64,000 bases of DNA from Candidatus Ryanbacteria bacterium RIFCSPLOWO2_12_FULL_44_26 (GCA_001821765.1 MHOA01000001.1:88294-152293); one strand, 5' to 3'. Positions 8,865 through 59,048 are shown, counted from the stretch's first letter. The notes: generated by a model from the letters alone, not told the origin. Translations and numbers: made by a program.

Positions 8865-10076
8865 ATGAGAAGCAGGAATATCAGCGTTGTGCTGCTTGCG
8901 CTTCTGTTTATAGGAGCTTCTTTTATTTTGGGTGCATATGTGGGATACCAGCAGCGTCCGTATGTGGATTTGGTAAGAAATATTCTTAATATAAAGGAAA
9001 CAGCCATCGCGGAGCCTGTGGAGGTTGATTTTGGGCCGTTTTGGAAAGCGTGGCACTTGATTGAAACAAAATATGTCGCCGGTGAAGAAATAGACCGCCA
9101 GGATCTTTTGTGGGGAGCGATTTCAGGTCTTTCGAGTGCCGTTGGCGATCCCTATACGGTATTTTTTCCTCCCGAAGAGAATGAATATTTTGAAAGCGAG
9201 GTAAAAGGTGTGTTTGGAGGAATAGGCGCTGAGATTGGAATTCGCAAGAACAATCTTGTTATTATTTCTCCCCTTGAGGATTCTCCTGCAAAGCGTGCGG
9301 GATTGAAAGCAGGAGATAGAGTATTGGAGATTGACGGTGAAAATACATCTGGCATGACATTGGATGAGGCCGTACGCCGCATACGCGGAGAAAAAGGAAC
9401 GGTAGTTGTACTGACGGTTTTTGGAGAGGAAGAAGAAGAGCCGAAGGAAATAGGCATCACCAGAGATATCATTAACGTTCCGGTTCTAAAAACTGAGCAC
9501 GATGAAGAAAAAAATATTTTTATCATCAAGCTTTTTAGTTTTTCAGCCCGATCGGGCCAGGAATTTAGAAACGCTATAAGGGAGTTTATTCTTTCCGGCG
9601 CTGATAAACTGATATTAGATTTGCGGAATAACCCCGGGGGATTTTTGGATTCAGCGATTGATATTGCGAGTTGGTTTCTGCCGAAAGGAGAGATTGTTGC
9701 GGTTGAGGAATTTCGAGACAGGGACCCGGTTGAATACCGAAGCAATGGATATGCTGTTGTACGAGGATTGAAAATGGTGGTGCTGGTAAATCAAGGATCA
9801 GCTTCTGCTTCAGAAATCGTTGCTGGAGCCCTGCAGGATCATGGAATTGCCACTATCATGGGAGAGAAAACATTTGGCAAGGGTTCGGTACAAGAGTTAA
9901 ACAACATTACTCAAGATACGTCTCTTAAAATTACCATAGCGCGCTGGCTTACCCCCACCGGAAGATCAATTTCCAAAGAGGGGCTTGAACCGGATATCAT
10001 TATTACAAAAGAAGAGACAGAAAATCCAGAAGATGATATTTTTATGATAAAAGCAAAGGAGTTTCTGTTACAATAG
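8865..10076 (+). CDS. ctpA: carboxy-terminal processing peptidase (S41, Ctp)
   Basis: N-terminal anchor, PDZ domain ([18 protein letters not shown]), S41 catalytic region ([17 protein letters not shown]); start taken at second Met to avoid overlap with divergent corA start. Confidence 0.8.
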
Positions 10077-12578: not shown

Positions 12579-14843
12579 CTACAGCGTCTCCCGTCTAAGG
12601 AATCTGAATATTTTTGCCAGTTCCGGAAGCCAAGGTCGGTCAAAGTGCGCAAGGAGCGCGGGAAGCAGGATCAAATCTCCAAAAAGAGCATACAGCATTG
12701 TTACACTAAGGAGCCGGGAAAATGTGTGGTATGGAATCAGGTCTGCCATATTCATTGCGAGAAATCCGGCGACAACGGCGACGGTGCTGGTCACAATCGG
12801 GAATGCGAGCTCTTGGATGGTTTTTTTTACTGCTTGTTCAGGAAGAAAACCGCTCTTTCTGTGATGCGTATATTGTGCGAGAAAATGTCCCGTATCATCC
12901 ACAACAAGACCAAGCGCAATGGCGCTGACGATGGAACTGCCAATATCAAGATCAATCTCAAATATTCCAAGCAGAGCCAAGCTTCCGAGCACCGGCAGGG
13001 CGTTTACGACAATGGCAAAAGCGGCGAGTTTTATAGACCGAGTCAGCACTACGAACGTGACAAACACCAGCATTATTCCGGTCGCAAGTGACCGCATATT
13101 TTCTTTGGCAATTTGAATGCCTGCACGGAAGAATTGTGCGACTCTGCCTGTAAGAACAGCGTCAATCCTGTTTTCTTGCGCGAAACTTTTTACAGCTCTA
13201 TCAAATTTGCTGAAATCGTCCGAATTTCGAAAAGGCGTTTGGAGAAGCACTGTCAGGCTTGTTCGATCGTGGCTGATGTACGGTTCAATGTCGTCATCTT
13301 CAAATAACAGGAGGAACTGCGATACCCCCTCTTTCTTTTTCGGAAATTCTTCAGGCATATCCTCGTCGGCGCTGAAAGCCAGGCTCAATTGCCGCAATTG
13401 ATCGTAGAAGTTTGAAGCCCTCAACCCCGGGATGAGTATTTTTTGTTTTTCAACAAATGCATGGACAGTATTCTGTACTTTTGGCTCAACAGCGATTTCT
13501 TGGTGGATATTATCAAACACCGTAAGCGGGATAACGTATGTTCCAAAAATTTCTTTTACCCGATCAAACTGTAAATGGACAGGATTGTTTTCCTTAAGGT
13601 AATCAATCGGTCCGTAGTTTACCTTGAGTTTTCCAATCCCCAATGCGCTAACGGCAGTCAAGATGGCAATCAGCACTATCGTTTGTCGGCCAGTAAGCAT
13701 AAACAAATGCCGATTTCCGTCATTCGGTATCTTGTCTTCATCATCCTTTTTCCTAAACGCAAGCACAGGAAAGGTGAGTGTTATAGTGACAAAAAGACAT
13801 GCCAGAATCCCAAATGTCCCCAGAAATCCGAATTGCCTGACAGCGGGAATGCCGCTTATTCCGGTGGTGCCAAAGCCGATCATAGTTGTAATCACAGCAA
13901 ACGCAAACGGCCGTAGTGCAGATGCCGGAAGCCATCCAAAAAACATGTTTCCGCCGCGCTTCGCATAGCCGAACGCATGAATCGTAAATGCAGCCCCCAG
14001 AGGAATCAGCAGGTTGACCATAAGAACATTGACCGGATTTTGCGGGATGCCAACGATAACCATCAGCGCAAAAGTAAGCGCCGTTGTTGAAATTCCCGTA
14101 GCTCCTGCGAGGATGCCGACCAATACAGATCTTGTCTGTATCCAAACAACCGCCATCATGATAAACACCACGATCGGCAGTATCATTGAAGCGCGGTCTG
14201 TTGCGCGGGAAAGTTCAGCGCTGACATTCAGCTCGCCGCTTTGAAGCAAATCTCCGCCGTTACAGTCTGAAGAAACTCCATCACAAAACCCTCTGCGAAA
14301 GGCACTGCGGTGTTTTTCCAAAACAGCCTTTACTCCGTCACTTACTGTCAGCGCGTCAGTCTTTTTTTCAGCAACTATATATATCGCAACCGCTGTTGCT
14401 TCAGCGTTAATGAGCAGGTTTTTGTATGGGACATACGCAACAGCCAGCTCACAGCGCTTTTGAGCATCAGCGGAAACGTCTGGAAAATTCTTTACCTCAA
14501 CGGTATTGCCTCTACCGGCAATATAGTTAGCGTTTGTAAGAGAGATGACCCTGTCAACGCCCGACAAACGCTCAAGATCGTCTGAAAGGAGCGTAAGACG
14601 CTTCCATCCTTCTTCTGTGCAAAGCGCATTTCCGGTCGCGACAACGATATTTCCAGCGTCGCTCGGAAATTCCTCAAGATATCTCTCGTAGTACCGCGCA
14701 CTTACATCACCCCTCGGAAGAAGGGCAGTGTAGTCGTCATCGGTGGTGAGATGTTTGAGAAATGGTACACTGACCGTAAATACCAACGTGAAAAACGCAA
14801 TGGCGCTTTTGCGGCCAAAGGCACGCATCATCCATTCCTTCAT
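12579..14843 (-). CDS. MMPL/RND-superfamily membrane transporter (lipid/exporter type)
   Basis: 754 aa, two 6-TM bundles each preceded by a large loop, typical MMPL/SSD architecture. Confidence 0.6.
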   Translation of the reverse strand: MKEWMMRAFGRKSAIAFFTLVFTVSVPFLKHLTTDDDYTALLPRGDVSARYYERYLEEFPSDAGNIVVATGNALCTEEGWKRLTLLSDDLERLSGVDRVISLTNANYIAGRGNTVEVKNFPDVSADAQKRCELAVAYVPYKNLLINAEATAVAIYIVAEKKTDALTVSDGVKAVLEKHRSAFRRGFCDGVSSDCNGGDLLQSGELNVSAELSRATDRASMILPIVVFIMMAVVWIQTRSVLVGILAGATGISTTALTFALMVIVGIPQNPVNVLMVNLLIPLGAAFTIHAFGYAKRGGNMFFGWLPASALRPFAFAVITTMIGFGTTGISGIPAVRQFGFLGTFGILACLFVTITLTFPVLAFRKKDDEDKIPNDGNRHLFMLTGRQTIVLIAILTAVSALGIGKLKVNYGPIDYLKENNPVHLQFDRVKEIFGTYVIPLTVFDNIHQEIAVEPKVQNTVHAFVEKQKILIPGLRASNFYDQLRQLSLAFSADEDMPEEFPKKKEGVSQFLLLFEDDDIEPYISHDRTSLTVLLQTPFRNSDDFSKFDRAVKSFAQENRIDAVLTGRVAQFFRAGIQIAKENMRSLATGIMLVFVTFVVLTRSIKLAAFAIVVNALPVLGSLALLGIFEIDLDIGSSIVSAIALGLVVDDTGHFLAQYTHHRKSGFLPEQAVKKTIQELAFPIVTSTVAVVAGFLAMNMADLIPYHTFSRLLSVTMLYALFGDLILLPALLAHFDRPWLPELAKIFRFLRRETL

Positions 14844-14952
14844 GTTCCTTCTCCTTTGTCAAAGAGAAACGTAAATCTATGTTGAAAGTACTACAAATAT
14901 ATCGTTTTGTCAATTAAATGAGTGGTATATAATTGTTATAAGAGCGTTTTTC

Positions 14953-15004
<52 letters not shown>

Positions 15005-15011
15005 TTAGTAG

Positions 15012-15695
15012 ATGGCATTATTATCGTATAAATTTTTTAGAAATTTTCTTGCAGTCGTTGCTTTTTATCTAAGCTATATTCTTTTGCGTCCGTTTTTTAA
15101 AATTATTTTCTCTGTAAAAGTTACTTTTCCGGAAAATTTTAGGGAAAAAATACAATTTCCGGTCATTTTTGTTACAAATCACAAGACCCATTTTGACCCT
15201 TGGATTTTTGCGGCAATGATGCCTTTTGTCTATCTTCGCGGAATCGTGCCGATCCGCTATATGGCGACTACTCGGTTCAAACACTTTTTTATGAAATTTC
15301 TTTACAGGATTGGAGTTATTAAAACTATATATTTTATTTATAACGTGCTTACTATTACTGATAAAGAAACTATTGAAGAAAAACTGACGCCATACATTAA
15401 AGCTCTTCAAAGTAACCAGACGGTCATGCTTTTCCCGGAAGGGGGATTGTTCCGTCATGATGCGGTAGGAGAATTCAAAAGAGGTGCGGTATATCTTCAT
15501 GCAATGAGCGGTATGCCAATTTTGCCGGCTTCTATTCGATTTTCCGGAAATGGCTTAAGAAAAAAATGCCATGTTCATTTTGGAAATCCCCTTATGATCC
15601 CTATTAATTTAAAAAGCGGGGGAGACGCCGTGCAAGCCGATGCATTAAAACATCTTCGGGAAATCATTGTTGGGTTGTATGAATATGCGGAATAA
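15012..15695 (+). CDS. lysophospholipid acyltransferase (PlsC/LPLAT family)
   Basis: HX4D motif NHKTHFD, FPEGG motif, N-terminal TM. Confidence 0.75.
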   Translation: MALLSYKFFRNFLAVVAFYLSYILLRPFFKIIFSVKVTFPENFREKIQFPVIFVTNHKTHFDPWIFAAMMPFVYLRGIVPIRYMATTRFKHFFMKFLYRIGVIKTIYFIYNVLTITDKETIEEKLTPYIKALQSNQTVMLFPEGGLFRHDAVGEFKRGAVYLHAMSGMPILPASIRFSGNGLRKKCHVHFGNPLMIPINLKSGGDAVQADALKHLREIIVGLYEYAE

Positions 15696-15769
15696 AAGCT
15701 TTTTGCAGTATATGATTTTTTAATAAAATCTATGGTAAAATAAGTGGTGTATGAGATTAGACTTGAAAA

Positions 15770-16474
15770 ATGCTCAACACAACTTTTTGGAAAAAGTATT
15801 TTGAGGTTTATGATTTACTTAATGAACTGATACCGTACCGGGAGTTATTAGACAAGATTTGTGAAGAGTTGGATGTAAAAAATGGTGATTTGGTTTTGGA
15901 TGCTGGTGCCGGAACAGGCAATCTTGGAGTTGAAATAGAAAAAAGAGACGGAAGAGTTGTTGGATTCGATTTGTCACCAGAAGGGTTGGGAATACATAAA
16001 AAGAAAACTCCATTTGCTGAACTGGTAATAGGAGATTTGTCTCGCCCACTACCTTTTGAGAATAATTATTTTGATAAAATTTGCTCAAATAATACGATTT
16101 ATACAATTCCCAGAAAATACAGAGAAGATATATTTAGAGAATTTTACCGTGTACTAAAACCGAGAGGGAAGGTGGTTGTTTCTAATATTACCCTAGGATT
16201 TAACCCATTCAAGATATATTTAACCCATATAAAACAGAGTTTTAGAAAAATTGGCATAATGAACACCATGTTAAAGGTTATTAAATTGGCGATTCCAACT
16301 ATTAAAATATTTTATTATAATCACCTAATTCAGAAAGAAGACAGAAGCGGACGTTATGATTTCTTTGAAGTTGATGAACAAAAGGATTTATTGAGAAAAA
16401 CAGGTTTCACAAATATTTCTGAAAATAAAAGTGTCTATGTCGGACAAGCTGTTCTCAACACAGCAATTAAATAG
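15770..16474 (+). CDS. class I SAM-dependent methyltransferase
   Basis: Motif I VLDAGAGTGNLG, motif post-I, LKPRGKVVV. Confidence 0.75.
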   Translation: MLNTTFWKKYFEVYDLLNELIPYRELLDKICEELDVKNGDLVLDAGAGTGNLGVEIEKRDGRVVGFDLSPEGLGIHKKKTPFAELVIGDLSRPLPFENNYFDKICSNNTIYTIPRKYREDIFREFYRVLKPRGKVVVSNITLGFNPFKIYLTHIKQSFRKIGIMNTMLKVIKLAIPTIKIFYYNHLIQKEDRSGRYDFFEVDEQKDLLRKTGFTNISENKSVYVGQAVLNTAIK

Positions 16475-16511
16475 TAAAAATCTAGTAGGTTAAAAAATAT
16501 AAGAACCTTTT

Positions 16512-17144
16512 ATGTGGAAACTAGTATTCTATACTAAAATATTGCTTCTCAAAATTTGGCTCTCATTTAAGGGCTATGAGTTATTTGTTCGTGACTATAA
16601 CTCGACACCTTCGGAAGTGTTTATTTTTAGAAAAAAAATATACCAAGTAGAAAACTATTTTGGAGATAATATTAAAATTGAAGATGTATGGAAAGATAAA
16701 TATGACGAGAAAAGTTTTCACGTTTATGTTAAAAATAAAAATTCAGTTATCGGCGCTTCTCGGCTAACATACATAGCGCCATTACCAATCACAGATGTGT
16801 TTAATGTTCACTCACTTAATAATAGTGTTGGTGAATTTTCTCGTTTGGTAATTGAAACGGATTTACGAGGCAACAGAAGGTTAATTCTTATAGCTTTGAC
16901 TTACGGGATGCTAAAAGCTAGTAGAAAAATTGGTATTAGACAGTGGGTAGCATTTATGCCATTAAAATTTAAAAATTCCCTTGAAAGGCTCGGAGTGAAA
17001 TTTTCTGAAATATCCCAACAAGCGTTGACAAATTATCATATCCAAAATCGTTCCATCTTATCTGGCTACTTTAAAAATGATATCAGACCGTATATCATAA
17101 AGACAAAATCTCTAAAAAGAGGTTTTGCGGGAATATTTAAGTAA
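16512..17144 (+). CDS. GNAT-fold N-acyltransferase of the autoinducer-synthase / N-acyl amino acid synthase superfamily (putative)
   Basis: About 210 aa; GEFSRLVIE...RGNRRL block resembling the E-x-SR-F/L-AV core of LuxI/N-acyl amino acid synthase-like enzymes. Confidence 0.4.
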   Translation: MWKLVFYTKILLLKIWLSFKGYELFVRDYNSTPSEVFIFRKKIYQVENYFGDNIKIEDVWKDKYDEKSFHVYVKNKNSVIGASRLTYIAPLPITDVFNVHSLNNSVGEFSRLVIETDLRGNRRLILIALTYGMLKASRKIGIRQWVAFMPLKFKNSLERLGVKFSEISQQALTNYHIQNRSILSGYFKNDIRPYIIKTKSLKRGFAGIFK

Positions 17145-17170
17145 ATTTATATCTTAAAAACACTAGCTGG

Positions 17171-18829
17171 ATGTTAAGTGTTGCCAACAATATTTTACTG
17201 ACTGTTGTTTTCATCAACTTTATTCTTGGTTTCGCGGTTCTCAGAAGAAACTGGAAAAATCCCACTAACCTTGCTTATTTACTGCTTACGTTTTCCATAA
17301 TATTATGGGCTATTTCTCTTTTCTTTTTTAGGGCAGCAAATAGCATTGATAATATTCTCATTATTGGGAAAATTGTCTACACAATCCCTCCATTCATTCC
17401 ATTCTTTTTTCTTCTGTTTGTTTATTCACTAGTTGGATCAAAAATTTCTTTACTAAAACTAGCAGTCTTTCTCTTACTTCCAACCATACTTATTTCTGTT
17501 ATTAGTCTGGAAACTTCGTTAGTAATAGCTGGCGCCGTGATAGAAAGAGGGATTAACCAGCTGCACTTTGGTTCTTTTTACTTTTTATATCTTTCTTATC
17601 TTACGCTTTATTTTTTAATAGGATTTATAACTTTATTCAAACGGTATCGTACTGAAAACAATCTGATTAAAAAAGCTCAATATAGACTTATACTCATTGG
17701 AGTAACTACTGCAATAGTGGTAGGGCTTTTTGCTAATGGATATTTCCTAACAACTTTTGCGTTTCAATATAACTGGGTTGGGCCAATAGGGACGGTATTT
17801 ATGGTAACACTCTTCGCTTACGCTATTGTCCAATATCGTTTATTTAACATTAAAGTAATTTCTGTTCAGATATTTGGCGGAGCTTTAGCTGGCGTACTTT
17901 TAGTAAAGTTATTATCCTCTCAAGGTCCCAGCGATTTTACCTTTAATAGTATAATATTTATTGGAGCAGTTGTTATAACTATTCTTCTAATAAGAGGAGT
18001 ACTCAAAGAAGTGGAAACAAGAGAAAAAATACAGGAACTGGCGGGGAAACTAGAAGCAGCAAATGCAGAACTTCGGCAACTGGATAAAGCAAAGTCAGAA
18101 TTTATTGATATTGCTTCTCATCAATTGCGCACTCCGCTCTCTATTATGAAAGGGTACTTGTCAATGCTGAATGAAGGTACGTTTGGGAAGTTGTCTATAA
18201 AATTGAAAGATCCGTTAAATAAAATCTATATTTCAAACGAGCGCCTTATTACGCTTGTCGCGGATTTGCTTGATCTTTCGCGAATTGAGCGAAAAAAACT
18301 GCAATATTCATTTGAACATATGCAAGTTTCCAATGTTATTCACTCAATTGTGATAGATTTTAAACAAACAGCCAGACAAAAAGGTCTGGCACTGCATTGG
18401 AGAAAACCAAAAAAACTGCCGCTTGTCTATGCCGACCCGCAAAAGCTGCGTCAAGTGTTTTTAAATATTATTGACAATGCAGTAAAGTACACAAACAAGG
18501 GATCAATTGATATTTCATTAAAACAAGACGGTGATTTTATTGTTTTTTCCGCAAAAGACACCGGTATTGGGTTAACAGAGAAAGAAGCACAGCGGCTTTT
18601 TCAGAAATTCGTTCGGGGAGAAGAAATGAAACGGGCAAAAACACAGGGCATGGGGCTTGGGATGTATGTGGCAAAATTGATTATTCAGGATCACCGGGGA
18701 GCAATTTGGGCGGAATCTCCCGGAAAGGGAAAGGGGAGTATCTTTTTCGTAAGACTGCCAATAGCAAAATCCGAAAACAAAGAAGACGAAAATGAAAAAC
18801 AAATGGAAGAATTTATTAAGAATATCTAA
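17171..18829 (+). CDS. sensor histidine kinase with N-terminal multi-TM (about 7 helices) sensor domain
   Basis: H-box ASHQLRTPL, N-box IIDNAVKYT, G-boxes DTGIGL / GMGLGM; no response regulator adjacent. Confidence 0.85.
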   Translation: MLSVANNILLTVVFINFILGFAVLRRNWKNPTNLAYLLLTFSIILWAISLFFFRAANSIDNILIIGKIVYTIPPFIPFFFLLFVYSLVGSKISLLKLAVFLLLPTILISVISLETSLVIAGAVIERGINQLHFGSFYFLYLSYLTLYFLIGFITLFKRYRTENNLIKKAQYRLILIGVTTAIVVGLFANGYFLTTFAFQYNWVGPIGTVFMVTLFAYAIVQYRLFNIKVISVQIFGGALAGVLLVKLLSSQGPSDFTFNSIIFIGAVVITILLIRGVLKEVETREKIQELAGKLEAANAELRQLDKAKSEFIDIASHQLRTPLSIMKGYLSMLNEGTFGKLSIKLKDPLNKIYISNERLITLVADLLDLSRIERKKLQYSFEHMQVSNVIHSIVIDFKQTARQKGLALHWRKPKKLPLVYADPQKLRQVFLNIIDNAVKYTNKGSIDISLKQDGDFIVFSAKDTGIGLTEKEAQRLFQKFVRGEEMKRAKTQGMGLGMYVAKLIIQDHRGAIWAESPGKGKGSIFFVRLPIAKSENKEDENEKQMEEFIKNI

Positions 18830-18986
18830 AAAAACAAAACATTCCATTATTCTTGGGAATATTGGGATATTTTTAAATATCCATATAGTTTAAAACCAAT
18901 CTTGACGCAATAACGCATCAGTGATATTTTTTGTAGAAGCTTAGGCAGTTCATTGTCAATTGAATAACGGGGAAAAGGAGAAGTTC

Positions 18987-40353: not shown

Positions 40354-41257
40354 TTATTGAACATATGTCAGCCATTTTTTATATGCCTTCCTCTCCCCTT
40401 TTACAATTTCTTCAAAATATGTTTTTACTCTTAACGTAACCGGACCGATGTTACCGTTATTGATAATTTTTTTGTCTATTTTTCCAACCGGCGTCACCTC
40501 CGCAGCAGTGCCCGTAAGAAAACATTCGTCGGCTTTATAGCAATCCTTCAGGTGAAACTTTTTTTCTCTTGCGCGTATTTTTAAATCTTTTGCAATTTGT
40601 ATAACGGCATTTCTTGTAATACCCGGCAAAATGTTGCCGAGGGGCGGAGTGCATAAGACGCCGTTTCGCACTATAAAAATGTTTTCTCCGGAACCTTCCG
40701 CCACAAAACCTTGTTGGGTAAGCAGCAATGCCTCATCATAACCGGCTTTTCTCGCTTCAAGGTGGGCTAAAACAGAATTGACATACGGTCCGCTTATTTT
40801 CGCGTTTGGGTTAAAAGACATCGGACTAAAACGCCTTATGTTTGCTGTTTTTATCTTTACTATCTGTTTCTTTAAATACTTTCCCCATGGAAGCACTATG
40901 ACTGCCAGATGCACTTTTGTTTTTTTTAGGATGAACTCCAAGAGCGCTTTTACCATAGAACATAATGGGTCTTATGTAGCCGGTTTGCAGTTTTTGGGCT
41001 TTTACGGTATCAATAACAGCTTTTTTGATACTTGAAGCTATCCATCTTGGTTTCATCCCAAAGGAATGGGCAGAATATATAAGACGCTTTATATGTTCGT
41101 CCAGCCGAAACACCGCGCTTCCGCTTTTGGTTTTATAAAATCTGATTCCTTCAAATGCCGCCGTCCCGTAGTGTAACGAATGGCTAAGCAAACTGATTCT
41201 TGCTTTGCTTTCTGGTCTTAATGTTCCATCAATCCAGATCATAAATATGTATTGCAA
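40354..41257 (-). pseudogene. ilvE: branched-chain amino acid aminotransferase split by a single-base frameshift in a homopolymer
   Basis: ORF 40826-41257 = BCAT N-terminus (GTAAFEGIRFY..RLDEHIKRL); ORF 40354-40956 = BCAT C-terminus (EGSGENIF..ILPGITR..TGTAAEV); frames differ by 1 across an A8 run (plus-strand T8 at 40920-40927); removing one base restores ..GVHPKKTKVHLAVIVLPWGKYL.. colinear with E. coli IlvE. Confidence 0.7.
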
Positions 41258-41276: not shown

Positions 41277-41996
41277 TTACGAACAGGTCGTCTTGCCCGC
41301 AAAAGGGGCTCCAAGCGCGGTATCGGCGCTGTCCACATCCCCATCGCCATCCCAGTCAGCATCAATACATTGAGGAAAAGCAGTCAAATCTGCACCCTCA
41401 CATGTTGTACGAAAATCGTTTAACTCTTGAACAGTAATATTTCCATCATGATCATTATTCTTATCCATCATAAGGTTTTGGTGAGTAAACACCCAGTACG
41501 GCCGCAAGGGGTTTTCCAATACTCCCCGCAGTAAATATCCCCTGCCGTCTTTACAGGGTTTATACATGTAATAGTGTGTTTTAGCGCCAGCGCCTGATGG
41601 ATCGGTCGGTAACTTGCTGATATATCCAGCATCAACCAACGGTTGCAAGTTGCTTGAAGAATACCAATAATCTCCGGGGGACGGGCCTGCGCTACTCCCC
41701 GGCCCTAAAGGACCAATGTCGCAATGGTCACCGACAGTAGATGATCGAAACCAGCCGAGGCTTGAGTCACAGTAATAATAGGGTTGGGTAAAGTTGCTGA
41801 AGGGGTAGTTATTTTGATCATTGTGATAAAATTCCAGTGCTTTTCGTATCTCTCTAAGATCTAAAATTCTTCTTGTGTCTCTTGCTTTTGACCGGAAACC
41901 GCTTACCGAAGGCGTAATAATGCTCGCCAACAAGGCAAGGATCGTTATAACAATTAACAATTCCAACAATGTAAATCCGTCCTCCTTTTTTTGCAT
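41277..41996 (-). CDS. type IV pilin-like protein (prepilin N-terminus) with C-terminal EF-hand/dockerin-like Ca-binding module
   Basis: MQKKEDG^FTLLELLIVITILA class III signal; C-terminus DKNNDHDGNITVQELNDF...DADWDGDGDVDSADTALGAPFAGKTTCS. Confidence 0.75.
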   Translation of the reverse strand: MQKKEDGFTLLELLIVITILALLASIITPSVSGFRSKARDTRRILDLREIRKALEFYHNDQNNYPFSNFTQPYYYCDSSLGWFRSSTVGDHCDIGPLGPGSSAGPSPGDYWYSSSNLQPLVDAGYISKLPTDPSGAGAKTHYYMYKPCKDGRGYLLRGVLENPLRPYWVFTHQNLMMDKNNDHDGNITVQELNDFRTTCEGADLTAFPQCIDADWDGDGDVDSADTALGAPFAGKTTCS

Positions 41997-42221
41997 TAAA
42001 TAAAATGAAGAAACAGCAAACCTATCTCTTTCACGCTAAAACCGGCCATGACAAGATAAGACATTGCCGAATAAGATGGGTATCCATATTTTAAGTATAT
42101 TCTTTACATAGCCCTTAAGCGAATGAAACCGCACTTCACATTGCTTATGAGAAGACAATATGTTGACGCACACAGGAATTGAGCCCGTGTTTCTGTTATC
42201 CGTCCATTACATTGAATCCTG

Positions 42222-42293
42222 TGACCCCTAGGGGAGTCGAACCCCTGTTTCATCCGTGAGAGGGATGCGTCCTAACCACTAGACGAAAGGGCC
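42222..42293 (-). tRNA. tRNA-Glu (anticodon CUC)
   Basis: Minus-strand cloverleaf GGCCCUU-UC-GUCU..AGGAC-G-CAUCC-CUCUCAC-GGAUG..AGGGG-UUCGACU-CCCCU-AGGGGUC-A. Confidence 0.85.
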
Positions 42294-42444
42294 ATACATT
42301 GAACGGATAAACGGATGCGCCATCAACATTTCTCACTTGGTGAAAATAAAAATGATTTTGTTTTAAGAGATTTTGAAAGAGGAGTAAACTACTACAGTAT
42401 AAAATATACACGCTTTTCTCCCAGATTTCAAATTTGAACATTAT

Positions 42445-43191
42445 TTACGAACATGTTGCCTTACCCGCAAAAGGGGCTCCAAGCGCGGTATCGGCAATGT
42501 CCACATCCCCATCACCGTCCCAGTCCGCATGAATGCATTCAGGGAAAGTGGATAAATTTGCCCCCTCACATGTTTTATAAGCAGTTAACTCTCCAGCAGT
42601 AATCGTTCCGTTATTATCCTTATCCATCATAAGGTTTTGGTGAGTAAACACCCAGTGCGGCCGTAAGGGATTTTCCAATACTCCCCGCAGTAAATATCCC
42701 CTGCCGTCTTTGCAGGGTTTATACATGTAATAGTGTGTTTTAGCGCCAGCGCCTGATGGATCGGTCGGTAACCTGCTGATATGTCCATTAACAACCAACG
42801 GTTGCAGGTTGCTCGTTGAATACCAATAATCGCCGGGGACTGGTTGGCCAGGATTAGACCCCGGCCCTAAAGGACCGATATAGCAATGATCAGAGGGAGA
42901 ATTTGATTGAAACCAGCCAAGGCTTGAGTCACAGTAACCATTTGGTGCAGTAAAGTTGCTGAAGGGGTAGCCACCAACGTCCACATTGTAAATTTCCAAA
43001 GCACGCCGTATTTGCATAAGGTCTGTAATTCTTCTGGCATTGCGCCCTTCCTGAAACCTTTTCAGCGGATTTAACGTGACAAAGATCATCCCTGCGATAA
43101 TGGCAGTAATTGAAATCACTATTAACACCTCAAGAAGCGTAAAGCCTTTTTTGCCGATAAAAAGGCGAAACCTATCAATGAATCTAAGCAT
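42445..43191 (-). CDS. type IV pilin-like protein, paralog of 41277-41996
   Basis: MLRFIDRFRLFIGKKG^FTLLEVLIV; canonical EF-hand loop DKDNNGTITAGE plus DADWDGDGDVDIADTALGAPFAGKATCS; start chosen at internal Met to abut murF stop. Confidence 0.75.
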   Translation of the reverse strand: MLRFIDRFRLFIGKKGFTLLEVLIVISITAIIAGMIFVTLNPLKRFQEGRNARRITDLMQIRRALEIYNVDVGGYPFSNFTAPNGYCDSSLGWFQSNSPSDHCYIGPLGPGSNPGQPVPGDYWYSTSNLQPLVVNGHISRLPTDPSGAGAKTHYYMYKPCKDGRGYLLRGVLENPLRPHWVFTHQNLMMDKDNNGTITAGELTAYKTCEGANLSTFPECIHADWDGDGDVDIADTALGAPFAGKATCS

Positions 43192-44500
43192 GAATGTGTA
43201 GGTTCTTTTTTTTCCAATAAGACTCCTGACGCACAAGAAGCGTTTCTGCTTGTGTATGATCCGCCATAACCGCTTCAGTTATTTTTTCCATCCTCATCGC
43301 CTGTGAACCCTTAATGAGCACAATCGTCCCCCTGCTTATCAGTTCATGGAGTTTTTTCCCGGCCTCGTTGGAATTTGAAAATTCAAAAATCTTTTCTTTA
43401 TCCATTCCCGCTGTAATTGCTCCTTCCGCTATAAACTTGGCGCGCGTTCCCACAACAAGCAATAAAGAACAAACAGTGCCCGCTTTTACGCCAATTGCGC
43501 GATGTTCCTGCACGGTGTATTTACCTATCTCCAACATATCCCCAAGCACCGCTATTTTTGCGTGAGTCGGCAGTTCCTCAAGCACTTCCAGAGCAGCTTT
43601 CATAGAAAGTGGCGAAGCATTATACGTGTCATCTAAAATGATGGAATGTTTCATACCCTCAATGAGTTTTAAACGTCCCGGAGACGCTTCATAATGGGAA
43701 AGCGCTTCTCCGATTTCAAGAAGATTTATGTTCCGTGAAATACCCGTAGCCGCCGCAGCCAGCGCGGCATAGACATGTTGTTTTCCTATAACTCCCGAGA
43801 TGCGTATAGGCAAAACATTTCCTTTATAGATAAGTTTGAACGTGATTCCCAAAGGAATCAAATGCCCTTCCTCTTTTTTTAAAGTAACCGCATAATTTGA
43901 AGCCTGTACGTGAGCTTTTTCATCAAAACCATACGTTAAAACAATTGCCGGCGTCTTATCCGCCAGCCCACGCACCGCAGGATCATCAAAATTGAGAATG
44001 GCATACCCATACATATCAAGCGGCCGCAAAATCTTTGATTTTTCATCAATGACTTCCTGCGGGCTCTGAAAGTATTCAACATGCACCGGAACCTCCCCAA
44101 TTGCTGTTATAACCGCAGTAGAAGGACGAATAATTTTAAGCAACATGTCAAGATTTCCGGGACGATCAATGCCCATCTCCAGCACAAATATTTCGGGATA
44201 TGGTTTAAAAGAGAACGCTCTTATCAGTCCCGCAAAAATATTTATAAACCATCCCATCGGCGAGCGAAAAGGGCTTGGGAGGCCTAACATTGCCAAAGGG
44301 ACTCCGATTTCACTATTATAGCTTTTTGGGCTTTTCGCGACTTTATAGCGGCTTTTTAATACCGTATAAATCGCCTCTTTCGCGGATGTTTTCCCCACAC
44401 TTCCGGTCACACCGATAATTGAAGGCTTAAACCGAAAAAGCACTATTTTCATTTCAATGTGCAAGATCCACAAAATAATTTTCTTAAAGATTTTTATCAT
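43184..44500 (-). CDS. murF: UDP-N-acetylmuramoyl-tripeptide--D-alanyl-D-alanine ligase
   Basis: GVTGSVGKTS P-loop, SYNSEIGVPLAML MurF hallmark. Confidence 0.8.
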   Translation of the reverse strand: MIKIFKKIILWILHIEMKIVLFRFKPSIIGVTGSVGKTSAKEAIYTVLKSRYKVAKSPKSYNSEIGVPLAMLGLPSPFRSPMGWFINIFAGLIRAFSFKPYPEIFVLEMGIDRPGNLDMLLKIIRPSTAVITAIGEVPVHVEYFQSPQEVIDEKSKILRPLDMYGYAILNFDDPAVRGLADKTPAIVLTYGFDEKAHVQASNYAVTLKKEEGHLIPLGITFKLIYKGNVLPIRISGVIGKQHVYAALAAAATGISRNINLLEIGEALSHYEASPGRLKLIEGMKHSIILDDTYNASPLSMKAALEVLEELPTHAKIAVLGDMLEIGKYTVQEHRAIGVKAGTVCSLLLVVGTRAKFIAEGAITAGMDKEKIFEFSNSNEAGKKLHELISRGTIVLIKGSQAMRMEKITEAVMADHTQAETLLVRQESYWKKKNLHIHA

Positions 44501-52406: not shown

Positions 52407-53165
52407 CTATTTTCCTATAAATACTTCCTTAATAATGTCTGCATTAATCGGACTTCTCACCAGTAATTCCAAAAACGGGGTTGTAACTTCATCTTTTATA
52501 GATACAACTTCACCGATAATGAAACTATCAGCTATATTGTTCACCACGATCTCGCCGATATCTACTGTAACGCCTCGAGGCACTTTTGTGATATAAAAAC
52601 CAGCTCCCTTCCCTTCAAGTATCACCGGAACCCCCGGGCCGGCAAGGATGCCGTTCATTTCCGTAAAAGGAGCAAAAGCGAATTTCACTGTACTGGAATG
52701 ACCGCTGGTGTCCTGTATGAAACCTAAAAGCGCGTTTTTATAAAAAACAATATTTCCGCTGGAGACGCCATCAGTATGTCCTTTGTTTAGAAGAGCTGTG
52801 TGAGCAAAGCTGTCAAGACGCTTGAACATCACAGAAGCTGGAATAACATCGTGTGTTATCTGTAGAGTGGATACTTCAGCATCAAGAGATTGATATTCGC
52901 TTATTCTAACTTCATCTCTCATACTTTTAATTTTTAAATAAGTGTTTTCTTTTTTAAGCTCAATAATCCCACTGCGCTTTCCAGCACCAAGCAGGGAAAA
53001 TTGCTCAATAATCCCAGACCATACATATCCAGCGCCAACAAGAGGGGTGGAAAGAAACGTAAGCGCTAAGGAGCGCATAGGCGCAAGAATATTGATGATG
53101 AAACTGAAAAGAAGCGCCGCTATAAAAAAACCAAAAAAGATTCTGATATTTTTGGGCCGCCCCAT
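52407..53165 (-). CDS. mreC: rod shape-determining protein MreC
   Basis: N-terminal TM, coiled coil, C-terminal beta domain; follows mreB. Confidence 0.7.
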   Translation of the reverse strand: MGRPKNIRIFFGFFIAALLFSFIINILAPMRSLALTFLSTPLVGAGYVWSGIIEQFSLLGAGKRSGIIELKKENTYLKIKSMRDEVRISEYQSLDAEVSTLQITHDVIPASVMFKRLDSFAHTALLNKGHTDGVSSGNIVFYKNALLGFIQDTSGHSSTVKFAFAPFTEMNGILAGPGVPVILEGKGAGFYITKVPRGVTVDIGEIVVNNIADSFIIGEVVSIKDEVTTPFLELLVRSPINADIIKEVFIGK

Positions 53166-53177
53166 ATATCACACGTA

Positions 53178-54233
53178 TTATGTAAACGAGACCTCTTCAG
53201 AAGTTTCGTCAATTAAGACATTTTTTAAATGGTCAATATCTTCCAAAACAATCCCTGTCCCTCTCACAACAGCTGTTACCGGATCATCAGCAACATGTAC
53301 TGGAATTCTTGTTTCTCTCTCAAAAAGTATATCAAGTCCGCGCAGCTGCGATCCTCCTCCCACCAACACAATGCCCCTGTGTATGATATCGGCCACCAGC
53401 TCCGGCGGGGTAACTTCGATTGTTTCTTTGACTGATTTTACCAATGCATGCACTGAATTTTTAAGCGCTTCCCTGACATCCGCGTCCGTCACAAGCACTT
53501 CCCTTGGAAGGCCGGAAATGAGATCCCGTCCGCGCATTGTTGCCTCCAGTTCTTCACTCTGGGTAACCGCGGAACCAATGGCAATTTTCAGATCTTCAGC
53601 AGTTCGTTCTCCTATAACGATCTTAAATTCGTTTCTTGCAAAATCTATAATATCCGCATTCATTCGATCTCCGGCAACGCGGAGATTTTTTGAAGCAACA
53701 ATGCCGCCAAGGGATATCACCGCTATATCACTCGTACCCCCCCCAATATCAACAATCATATTGCCAACAGGTTCCTGGACTTCAAGTCTCACGCCAATTG
53801 CTGCCGCCATGGGTTCGTCGATCAAAAACACTTGCCGAGCGCCAGCTGATTTTGCCGCATCAATAACTGCTTTGCGCTCTACTTCTGTAATGCCGGACGG
53901 CACGCCAATAACAACGCGCGGACGCGCCAGCCGCCGGACATAACTGCCATGCACTTTATGTATAAAATGCATAATCATTTCCTCCGTTATTTCAAAATCA
54001 GAAATCACACCTTCTATCAGTGGCCTGTGGGCGACGATGTGTGATGGAGTTCTGCCAACCATTCGTTTTGCATCAGACCCAACCGCAACGACTTTGCCGG
54101 TTTTTTGATTCACAGCAACCACAGAAGGCTCATTAATAACAATTCCACGACCAGCAACGTATACCAGTGTATTAGCGGTCCCGAGGTCAATGCCTATGTC
54201 GTTTGAAAAAATACTAAATAACGAATTAAACAT
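53178..54233 (-). CDS. mreB: rod shape-determining protein MreB
   Basis: IGIDLGTANTLVYV, actin-fold phosphate motifs DIGGGTSD, GGGS. Confidence 0.9.
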   Translation of the reverse strand: MFNSLFSIFSNDIGIDLGTANTLVYVAGRGIVINEPSVVAVNQKTGKVVAVGSDAKRMVGRTPSHIVAHRPLIEGVISDFEITEEMIMHFIHKVHGSYVRRLARPRVVIGVPSGITEVERKAVIDAAKSAGARQVFLIDEPMAAAIGVRLEVQEPVGNMIVDIGGGTSDIAVISLGGIVASKNLRVAGDRMNADIIDFARNEFKIVIGERTAEDLKIAIGSAVTQSEELEATMRGRDLISGLPREVLVTDADVREALKNSVHALVKSVKETIEVTPPELVADIIHRGIVLVGGGSQLRGLDILFERETRIPVHVADDPVTAVVRGTGIVLEDIDHLKNVLIDETSEEVSFT

Positions 54234-58025: not shown

Positions 58026-59048
58026 CTATCGCTTCAGCAGTATGCTCTTTTTATATGCTTCCAGATGCTCAAGCGCCGTACCACAACCTTTTGCAACACA
58101 CAACAGCGGATCATTTGCAACAGACGCTGAAACGCCGGTTGAACGGTAGACAAGCTCTTCAATATTTCTAAGAAGTGAACCGCCGCCTGTCATAACAATG
58201 CTTTCTGATATAATATCAGCCGAAAGCTCCGGCGGCGTATTCTGCAAGGTGGTTTTAATAGAACGGATGATATCATCAAGACATCCCTGAATCGCTTTTA
58301 CTACTTCGTTGGTTGAAATATCAGCACTTCGCGGGAGCCCAGTGAGAATATCCCTCCCCTTAATAGTACAGACCAACTCCTCTTTTACCGGTATTGCCGA
58401 CCCAACGGCAATCTTTATTTCCTCTGCAGTGCGCTCGCCAATGGCAAGATTGAGATGTTCTTTAATATGATCGGCAATGGCCTGATCAATTTTATCACCA
58501 GCTACTTTTACAGAATTTGATGTTACAATTCCTCCAAGAGCAATGACGGCGGAATCGGTCGTGCCTCCTCCGATATCTACCACCATATACCCTCGCGGCT
58601 CGTGGATTGGAATGCCCGCCCCGATAGCTGCAAGAATCGGCTCTTTCACCACATACGCCGATTTTGCACCGGCTTTCATAGCTGCTTCCACAACCGCCCT
58701 TCTTTCGGTTGAGGTGACTCCGGCAGGAACGGATACCATGACATCGGGTTTAATAATGTTAAAGCGTCCCAGCGACTTAGATATAAAATAATTCAACATT
58801 GCTTCAGTTACCCGATAGTCCGCTATAACACCGTTTTTTAAAGGCCGATACGCAATAATGTTCTCTGGAGTGCGCCCGATCATGATTTTTGCCTCATTAC
58901 CTACCGCAAGCACCTTCTTAGACCCCACAGAAACGGCAACGACCGATGGCTCATTAATACAGACTCCTTTTTGCGGCACAAACACGAGTGTATTTGCCGT
59001 TCCAAGATCAATGCCGAGTTTTCTGATAAATAACGCCATATTATCCAC
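58026..59048 (-). CDS. MreB-family actin homolog (second paralog)
   Basis: LGIDLGTANTLVFV, DIGGGTTD, GGGS. Confidence 0.85.
   Translation of the reverse strand: MDNMALFIRKLGIDLGTANTLVFVPQKGVCINEPSVVAVSVGSKKVLAVGNEAKIMIGRTPENIIAYRPLKNGVIADYRVTEAMLNYFISKSLGRFNIIKPDVMVSVPAGVTSTERRAVVEAAMKAGAKSAYVVKEPILAAIGAGIPIHEPRGYMVVDIGGGTTDSAVIALGGIVTSNSVKVAGDKIDQAIADHIKEHLNLAIGERTAEEIKIAVGSAIPVKEELVCTIKGRDILTGLPRSADISTNEVVKAIQGCLDDIIRSIKTTLQNTPPELSADIISESIVMTGGGSLLRNIEELVYRSTGVSASVANDPLLCVAKGCGTALEHLEAYKKSILLKR

Follow-up and report, generated by a model that had tools for sequence, protein, structure and literature searches.

The 64,000-nucleotide stretch of the Candidatus Ryanbacteria bacterium RIFCSPLOWO2_12_FULL_44_26 assembly that was analyzed (the window) contains a cluster of four genes encoding, in order, a PlsC-type acyltransferase, a SAM-dependent methyltransferase, a predicted N-acyl synthase, and a sensor histidine kinase (Table 1). 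With intergenic gaps of 74, 37, and 26 nt, the genes look like a single operon; catalytic motifs are intact in all four products. The divergent intergenic region preceding the cluster is the probable promoter region of the operon, and a promoter/terminator scan was uninformative. A perfect microsatellite is located in the same intergenic region, 8 nt upstream of the PlsC start. Its copy number is also 17 in four other assemblies, and one contig (L005) begins inside the repeat and has 18 copies. It may act as a switch of expression through strand slippage, or it may only mark a break in the assembly.

Table 1. Features of the four-gene module and of other parts of the window (positions counted from the first nucleotide of the window).
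Feature	Position	Strand	Details
RND transporter, MMPL/HAE3 type	12579–14843	-	754 aa; divergent from module; GC 47.5%
Divergent intergenic region	14844–15011	.	168 nt; putative operon promoter region
Perfect (AAT)17 microsatellite	14953–15004		In divergent MMPL/PlsC intergenic region
PlsC/LPLAT-type acyltransferase	15012–15695	+	227 aa; first module gene; Pfam PF01553, 54.5 bits
Class I SAM-dependent methyltransferase	15770–16474	+	234 aa; motif I VLDAGAGTG
Predicted N-acyl synthase (LuxI/FeeM-fold fatty-acyl N-acyltransferase)	16512–17144	+	210 aa; ATG start
Sensor histidine kinase, orphan	17171–18829	+	552 aa; HisKA_7TM + HisKA + HATPase_c
Cys-rich repeat protein	18960–20936	+	658 aa; thrombospondin type 3 and NHL repeats
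Membrane ORF	21036–21401	-	121 aa; no family match
Class IV aminotransferase ORF	40354–40956	-	200 aa; covers profile positions 77–223 only
Type IV pilin-like (N_methyl) proteins (two), MreB paralogues (two) and MreC, PBP2-type transpeptidases (two)	41277–43236; 52407–54233; 58026–59048	-	

A hydrophobic N-terminus, an HX4D motif (NHKTHFD), and an FPEGG block can be read from the translation of the PlsC-type protein, which scores 50 bits against TIGR00530, under the cutoff of that model. The methyltransferase, with its GxGxG motif, matches Methyltransf_25/11/31/23, UbiE, and CMAS. Among solved structures, phosphoethanolamine N-methyltransferases come closest to it (E about 1e-9), and its NCBIfam matches include carboxyl O-methyltransferases such as BioC, so that formation of a methyl ester is equally possible as N-methylation. 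The kinase matches PF16927 (HisKA_7TM, residues 9–227) with 64.9 bits, PF00512 with 59.7 bits, and PF02518 with 85.9 bits, and H (SHQLRTPL), N, G1, F, and G2 boxes are present in its translation. It has no extracytoplasmic domain; its sensor is membrane-embedded only. The original prediction described a 7TM histidine kinase directly after the synthase and without a response regulator, and this was borne out: receiver domains were absent from the ORFs of the 64-kb window in phmmer searches seeded with CheY, OmpR, and Spo0F sequences, and Pfam annotation of window ORFs ≥150 aa likewise shows none. Nor do the annotated ORFs include a LuxR-type protein, ACP, or acyl-activating enzyme, and the remaining large ORFs encode housekeeping functions only, in cell wall synthesis, replication, and translation (Pfam).

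The synthase consists of a hydrophobic and basic N-terminal helix (residues 1–20) followed by a GNAT core. Such helices of ∼20 residues are common in the clade of relatives described below and are missing in LasI and BjaI; their composition suggests that the synthase is membrane associated. The gene was called identically and at the same position in five independent assemblies, and its start codon is backed by the nearest relative, whose N-terminus reads MWR- where the window protein has MWK-. An identical protein is on record in Candidatus Ryanbacteria MAGs (e.g., GCA_001819715.1 contig MHNJ01000007.1), and dozens of groundwater metagenome contigs carry it within a constant gene neighborhood. 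Both motifs from which a resemblance to acyl-homoserine-lactone (AHL) and N-acyl amino acid synthases had been drawn are found in the 210-residue product, VWKDKYDE at residues 59–66 and GEFSRLVIETDLRGNRRL at residues 107–124.

The strongest match of the synthase is to NCBIfam TIGR03694, the PEP-CTERM/exosortase-associated acyltransferase (E 1.5e-13). The alignment covers only profile positions 8–124 of 241, and the score of 50.8 bits fails the cutoff of 111.95; the true TIGR03694 members P0097 and P0098 score 256 and 227 bits on this model. Pfam scores are just above the gathering thresholds (GA) for FeeM (PF21926; 28.9 bits, GA 27), Autoind_synth (PF00765; 25.3 bits, GA 24), and, again marginally, Acetyltransf_5 (PF13444; 23.3 bits, GA 22.4). 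No NCBIfam AHL-synthase model was matched at E ≤ 1, and the OlsB equivalog models were not matched. TIGR03694 is likewise the top match for all 40 aligned relatives (best E 1.2e-28), eight of which match OlsB models weakly (E about 1e-5, at most 23 bits against cutoffs of about 350). On the profile of the synthase family itself, true TIGR03694 members score 65–80 bits, the best AHL synthase 44 bits, and FeeM 16 bits. The synthase lies outside the TIGR03694 and OlsB equivalogs and is only a marginal member of the Pfam LuxI or FeeM families. An exhaustive HMMER search of 1.84 billion cluster representatives returned 87 clusters at E ≤ 1e-3 and 27 at E ≤ 1e-10, and a word-indexed homologue search with the window synthase returned only the protein itself. 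Queried with alignments, the word-indexed search gave nine hits each time. The clade is small, rare, uncharacterized, and mainly from CPR/Patescibacteria.

A phmmer search of the PDB with the single synthase sequence gave nothing meaningful, and a single-sequence AlphaFold model was discarded (pLDDT 42). The 40-member family profile matched the solved LuxI-type structures of BjaI (5W8A; E 1.2e-10), MesI (6WNS; E 1.8e-7), RpaI (6WN0; E 4.5e-7), and LasI (1RO5; E 1.5e-5), as well as EsaI and TofI (3P2H) at E about 1e-3. The N-acyl tyrosine synthase FeeM from soil eDNA (2G0B) was matched weakly (E 0.037). In both the solved-structure and PDB-sequence comparisons AHL synthases rank above FeeM, the sole solved N-acyl amino acid synthase, a ranking that covers no TIGR03694 or OlsB structure since none exists. 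The CoA-dependent LuxI-type enzymes (BjaI, MesI, RpaI) outscored the ACP-dependent ones, which is a hint of an acyl-CoA donor. The generic GNATs SACOL1063 and PA0115 also scored well. Profile searches and a confident structure model agree on a LuxI-type GNAT fold, and the protein combines a FeeM-like structure with its FeeM gathering score, so that the relatedness to LuxI and N-acyl amino acid synthases originally proposed holds. These data support a fatty-acyl N-acyltransferase of the LuxI/N-acyl-amino-acid-synthase branch of the GNAT superfamily, with its predicted chemistry read from family and fold.

The clade was aligned with P0097, P0098, BjaI, and LasI (the LasI sequence was verified against 1RO5). 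LasI residues R23, F27, W33, D44, D47, R70, E101, S103, and R104 correspond to R40, Y44, F50, D62, D65, R84, E108, S110, and R111 of the window synthase. Eight of these nine LuxI signature residues are kept, the exception being the SAM-pocket tryptophan LasI W33, which is Phe50 in the window protein and Ile in most clade members. Arg40, Asp62, Arg84, and Glu108 are invariant across the clade, the TIGR03694 members, BjaI, and LasI, and Asp65, Ser110, and Arg111 are nearly so; neither a loss of active-site residues nor a departure from the GNAT fold was found. Residues conserved within the clade are R40, Y44, D62, D65, R84, E108, S110, R111, R119, R180, Y186, and P193, and the C-terminal motifs W145..FMP150, R180, GYF186-187, and P193 are peculiar to it. 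The intervals along R40-Y44-F50-D62-D65-R84-E108 are 4/6/12/3/19/24, compared with 4/6/11/3/23/31 in LasI, so the earlier remark that the spacing departs from canonical LuxI is correct but minor.

The R..Y, D..D, R, E.SR signature and the overall GNAT core are common to the window synthase and TIGR03694. An insertion of ∼25 residues after the E-x-S-R motif in P0097 and P0098 is missing from the clade, including the window synthase, which further differs from TIGR03694 in its extra N-terminal hydrophobic helix, in its PlsC, methyltransferase, and 7TM kinase partners, and in the absence of a PEP-CTERM/exosortase context (the window contains no exosortase or PEP-CTERM genes). Since the signature residues are also present in true TIGR03694 N-acyl amino acid synthases, they do not discriminate these from AHL synthases and were rejected as an argument for AHL synthesis. 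On this alignment the classical LuxI signature is a superfamily feature that also occurs in N-acyl amino acid makers.

Gene neighborhoods were compared between the window and ten further lineages (11 in total), whose synthases are 29–42% identical to that of the window. A related-locus search with an alignment of two sequences recovered the P0002 genome only. The order PlsC, synthase, 7TM kinase is found in L015 (P0010) and L019 (P0016), and with a 7TM-GAF kinase in L007/8 (P0003). In L006 (P0002, from a MAG labelled Saccharibacteria), PlsC is followed by a synthase::methyltransferase fusion and a 7TM kinase; in L016/17 (P0007), PlsC is followed, after other genes, by synthase, methyltransferase, and 7TM kinase; and in L011/12 (P0005), PlsC, synthase, and methyltransferase run to the contig end. 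The orders are methyltransferase, synthase, 7TM kinase in L009/10 (P0004), synthase, 7TM kinase in L021 (P0029), and synthase, kinase, MTase-CYTH-HAD protein in L020 (P0013). The synthase of L013 (P0008), where the upstream region is missing, is followed by an SLH/SLT protein with no kinase downstream. With the window counted, a 7TM kinase adjoins the synthase in nine of ten informative lineages and a PlsC-type acyltransferase in seven of nine, and a methyltransferase is adjacent or fused (P0002) to the synthase in five. The kinases adjoining the synthase in L006, L007, L009, L015, L016, L019, L020, and L021 are homologous to that of the window, as are the PlsC-type proteins encoded upstream in L006, L007, L012, L015, L016, and L019, and the window methyltransferase is 42–49% identical to the synthase-adjoining enzymes of L009, L012, and L016 and to the fused one of P0002/L006. 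The methyltransferase is missing from three PlsC-synthase-kinase loci (L007, L015, L019), indicating that methylation is not obligatory. The partner set is constant across deep lineages although the surrounding genes differ. The distant 241-residue relative P0090 adjoins an asparagine-synthase-type gene and has none of the module partners.

Taken together, the PlsC-type acyltransferase, methyltransferase, synthase, and 7TM kinase genes appear from their conserved order to constitute a four-gene operon with the synthase in third place, and this gene context is the decisive evidence. The original prediction had posed a choice between a signal synthase paired with its sensor and the N-acylating step of a lipid module. 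Conserved gene order backs both the pairing and the lipid-module step, and the choice itself falls away because all four genes form one module.

The synthase::methyltransferase fusion (L006, 10001–11365) rests on one contig. The synthase and methyltransferase genes of L016 (6001–7330) overlap by 14 nt in different frames, so that a one-base error could also yield a fusion of the P0002 type, which could thus be a frameshift artefact. In L020 (5001–10654) the synthase-kinase pair is followed by an 838-residue methyltransferase-CYTH-HAD fusion and a radical SAM gene, with no PlsC, and L006 has a 131-residue ORF without a Pfam match (8892–9287) between the L21 and PlsC genes.

The module (14850–18900) has a GC content of 33%, compared with 42% for the rest of the window, and L006 exhibits the same trend (38% versus 46%). 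A horizontally acquired low-GC island was nevertheless rejected as the main explanation. L019 and L016 keep the module beside AspRS, as in the window (the L019 order is AspRS-ScpA-ScpB-S11), and the identities between window and L019 proteins in the module (kinase 38%, PlsC 36%, synthase 29%) resemble those of housekeeping proteins (AspRS 33%, ScpA 37%, ScpB 47%). The shared position and housekeeping-like divergence argue for an old module, passed on mostly by vertical inheritance within this part of the CPR; given its synteny with distant relatives, recent transfer does not account for the low GC. The L006 module has another location, following MPG-RmuC-L21. The MMPL/HAE3 transporter, which had been counted into the lipid module, is not conserved with it: the gene has normal GC and is not near the module in L006, L016, L019, or L020, and it was rejected as a module part; nothing supports its involvement in lipid export. 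In the window, the Cys-rich NHL/TSP3-repeat protein, the small membrane ORF, and MurA are inserted between kinase and AspRS; L019 has neither of the first two at that position. The NHL-repeat protein was considered as a PEP-CTERM substrate and rejected, as its ScyF match comes from the NHL repeats only and the protein ends in ...RFSCP with no PEP-CTERM tail.

A small modified lipid is the probable product of the operon, and the same cell probably senses it. We propose, with confidence and doubt about equal, that this lipid or signal is derived from an amino acid by N-acylation and methylation, perhaps in acyloxyacyl form, and that the kinase detects it. In the first step, for which family and fold argue, the synthase would move a fatty acyl chain from a thioester onto the α-amino group of an amino acid or amino acid-like amine, giving a lipoamino acid. 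Conserved adjacency and the one gene fusion point to a second step in which the methyltransferase would methylate the lipoamino acid, either forming an ester at its carboxyl group or modifying a distal amine. Conserved adjacency is also consistent with an optional third step in which the PlsC-type enzyme would place a second acyl chain on a hydroxyl, like OlsA and GlsA; alternatively, the PlsC-type gene could simply encode the phospholipid acyltransferase of the cell. Finally, the 7TM kinase, almost always co-encoded and without an extracytoplasmic domain, may detect the lipid within the membrane, or a membrane state altered by it, and signal to a response regulator encoded elsewhere.

Acyloxyacyl aminolipids are known to be made in two steps, by an N-acyltransferase and a PlsC-like O-acyltransferase, as in OlsB/OlsA, GlsB/GlsA, and OlsF (PMC11631085; PMC12971839), and OlsG provides a precedent for SAM-dependent head-group methylation (PMC12971839). 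The window resembles these systems in placing a GNAT-type N-acyltransferase (PF13444) beside a PlsC-family O-acyltransferase, together with a SAM methyltransferase of the head-group N-methyltransferase type. It differs from OlsB-type pathways in that its synthase family is small, largely confined to the CPR, and unmatched by OlsB models, and in having a sensor kinase in the operon. The acyl donor is a real problem for the proposed chemistry. The window encodes neither an ACP nor an acyl-activating enzyme, and CPR genomes reportedly have no ACP-dependent enzymes (PMC7242380). Should ACP be missing from CPR bacteria, the usual 3-hydroxyacyl-ACP of FAS II cannot be the donor, and acyl-CoA would be more plausible than acyl-ACP in such an organism. 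FeeM differs from the window synthase in having a dedicated ACP (FeeL), which the window locus does not, as well as in its operon and in its weak match to the family profile.

A different reading is that the synthase is a genuine LuxI-type AHL synthase, which would acylate the amino group of SAM, lactonize the product, and release MTA, with the 7TM kinase serving as the membrane receptor of a complete CPR quorum-sensing circuit. We consider this unlikely. The eight retained LuxI signature residues agree with AHL synthesis, but bona fide N-acyl amino acid synthases of TIGR03694 have them without exception, and the LuxI Trp position is Ile in most of the clade. [quoted passage not shown] The conserved adjacency of synthase and kinase would fit a signal-receptor pair, but AHL synthesis has no use for the PlsC and methyltransferase partners that are conserved here, nor for the fusion, and unlike the LuxI-type loci the 64-kb window contains no LuxR-type protein.

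AHL systems in the CPR have been proposed in print. Bernard et al. (2020, mSystems; PMC7567580) screened CPR and DPANN genomes for quorum-sensing genes, noted CqsS-like N-termini, and listed 18 ‘LuxI homologs adjacent to a sensory kinase’ that might each be a complete AHL system. Their Table S4 includes five Ryanbacteria MAGs with identical scores (e.g., OGZ48657.1/OGZ48658.1 of RIFCSPHIGHO2_02_FULL_45_43), as well as entries from Taylorbacteria in which an ‘HdtS’ (PlsC-type) gene lies at a distance of three genes. From genome name, identical scores, and gene order, the Ryanbacteria pair appears to be the synthase-kinase pair of the window. The pairing is already published, in silico only, and the four-gene module is not described there (PMC7567580). 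In the literature we found no account of the affinity to TIGR03694, of PlsC and methyltransferase as conserved partners, or of the fusion and the synteny. The present analysis corrects the annotation ‘LuxI homolog plus kinase’ to one closer to N-acyl amino acid synthases, and because the synthase is closer to these enzymes and has partners that AHL synthesis does not need, the claim of AHL quorum sensing in the CPR is unproven.

The product might instead be a structural membrane aminolipid of the ornithine, lysine, or glycine lipid kind, perhaps with N-methylation as in trimethylornithine lipids, with the kinase acting not on a signal but as a DesK-like sensor of membrane state that regulates lipid remodeling. 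This, too, seems improbable to us. The combination of N-acyltransferase and PlsC-type O-acyltransferase follows the OlsBA/GlsBA/OlsF logic (PMC11631085), but the OlsB equivalog models are unmatched by the window protein and its relatives fall far below their cutoffs, and the 3-hydroxyacyl donor normally comes from FAS II, which is missing in CPR bacteria. The nearest solved relatives of the methyltransferase act on head-group amines, with the OlsG precedent (PMC12971839), and the sensor domain of the kinase is solely membrane-embedded; lipids from CPR-enriched fractions were, however, reported to be all acylglycerols (PMC7242380). An ancient and syntenic module is what would be expected of a core membrane function, but a family this rare (87 of 1.84 billion cluster representatives) is not what a general membrane-lipid pathway of the CPR would lead one to expect. 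Least probable, and in our estimation very unlikely, is acylation of some other acceptor (a lipid head group, a cell-wall precursor, or a protein amine) by a synthase only loosely related to its operon neighbors: the GNAT fold accommodates varied substrates, generic members such as SACOL1063 and PA0115 have good scores as well, and cell-wall genes abound in the surroundings, but the full LuxI/NAS signature and a C-terminal half typical of long-chain acyl enzymes are conserved, and the partner set is unchanged across deep lineages while the surrounding genes differ.

The preferred reading, a modified N-acyl amino-acid lipid that is made and sensed by the products of one operon, has parallels among known signaling systems. 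LuxM/LuxN and CqsA/CqsS are pairs of a synthase and a membrane histidine-kinase receptor for hydrophobic autoinducers, LuxN being the membrane receptor for the LuxM product. The window is similar in that a multi-pass membrane kinase without a periplasmic domain is encoded directly after the putative signal synthase, but its synthase family is unrelated to LuxM and CqsA, and its kinase differs from LuxN and CqsS in having a HisKA_7TM sensor, in not being a hybrid kinase, and in having no nearby regulator. It is conceivable, though we regard it as doubtful, that the module represents a CPR signaling circuit based on a lipid and not on an AHL, in which a membrane-anchored LuxI-fold synthase, a methyltransferase, and a second acyltransferase would generate a neutral methylated N-acyl(oxyacyl) amino acid that is read inside the membrane by the co-inherited 7TM kinase. 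If so, the product would be a new class of autoinducer, through which ultra-small episymbionts unable to make their own fatty acids might sense host contact or cell density. Dependence on hosts for lipids and a very limited regulatory repertoire are ascribed to CPR/Patescibacteria; an ancient operon that joins two acyltransferases and a methyltransferase to a sensor kinase would be among the few candidate lipid- or signal-making systems in these organisms.

Two further observations concern other parts of the window. The class IV aminotransferase ORF may be N-terminally truncated or have a miscalled start. The pilin-like proteins, MreB paralogues, MreC, and PBP2-type transpeptidases listed in Table 1 make up a rich cell-shape and pilus complement for a reduced CPR genome.
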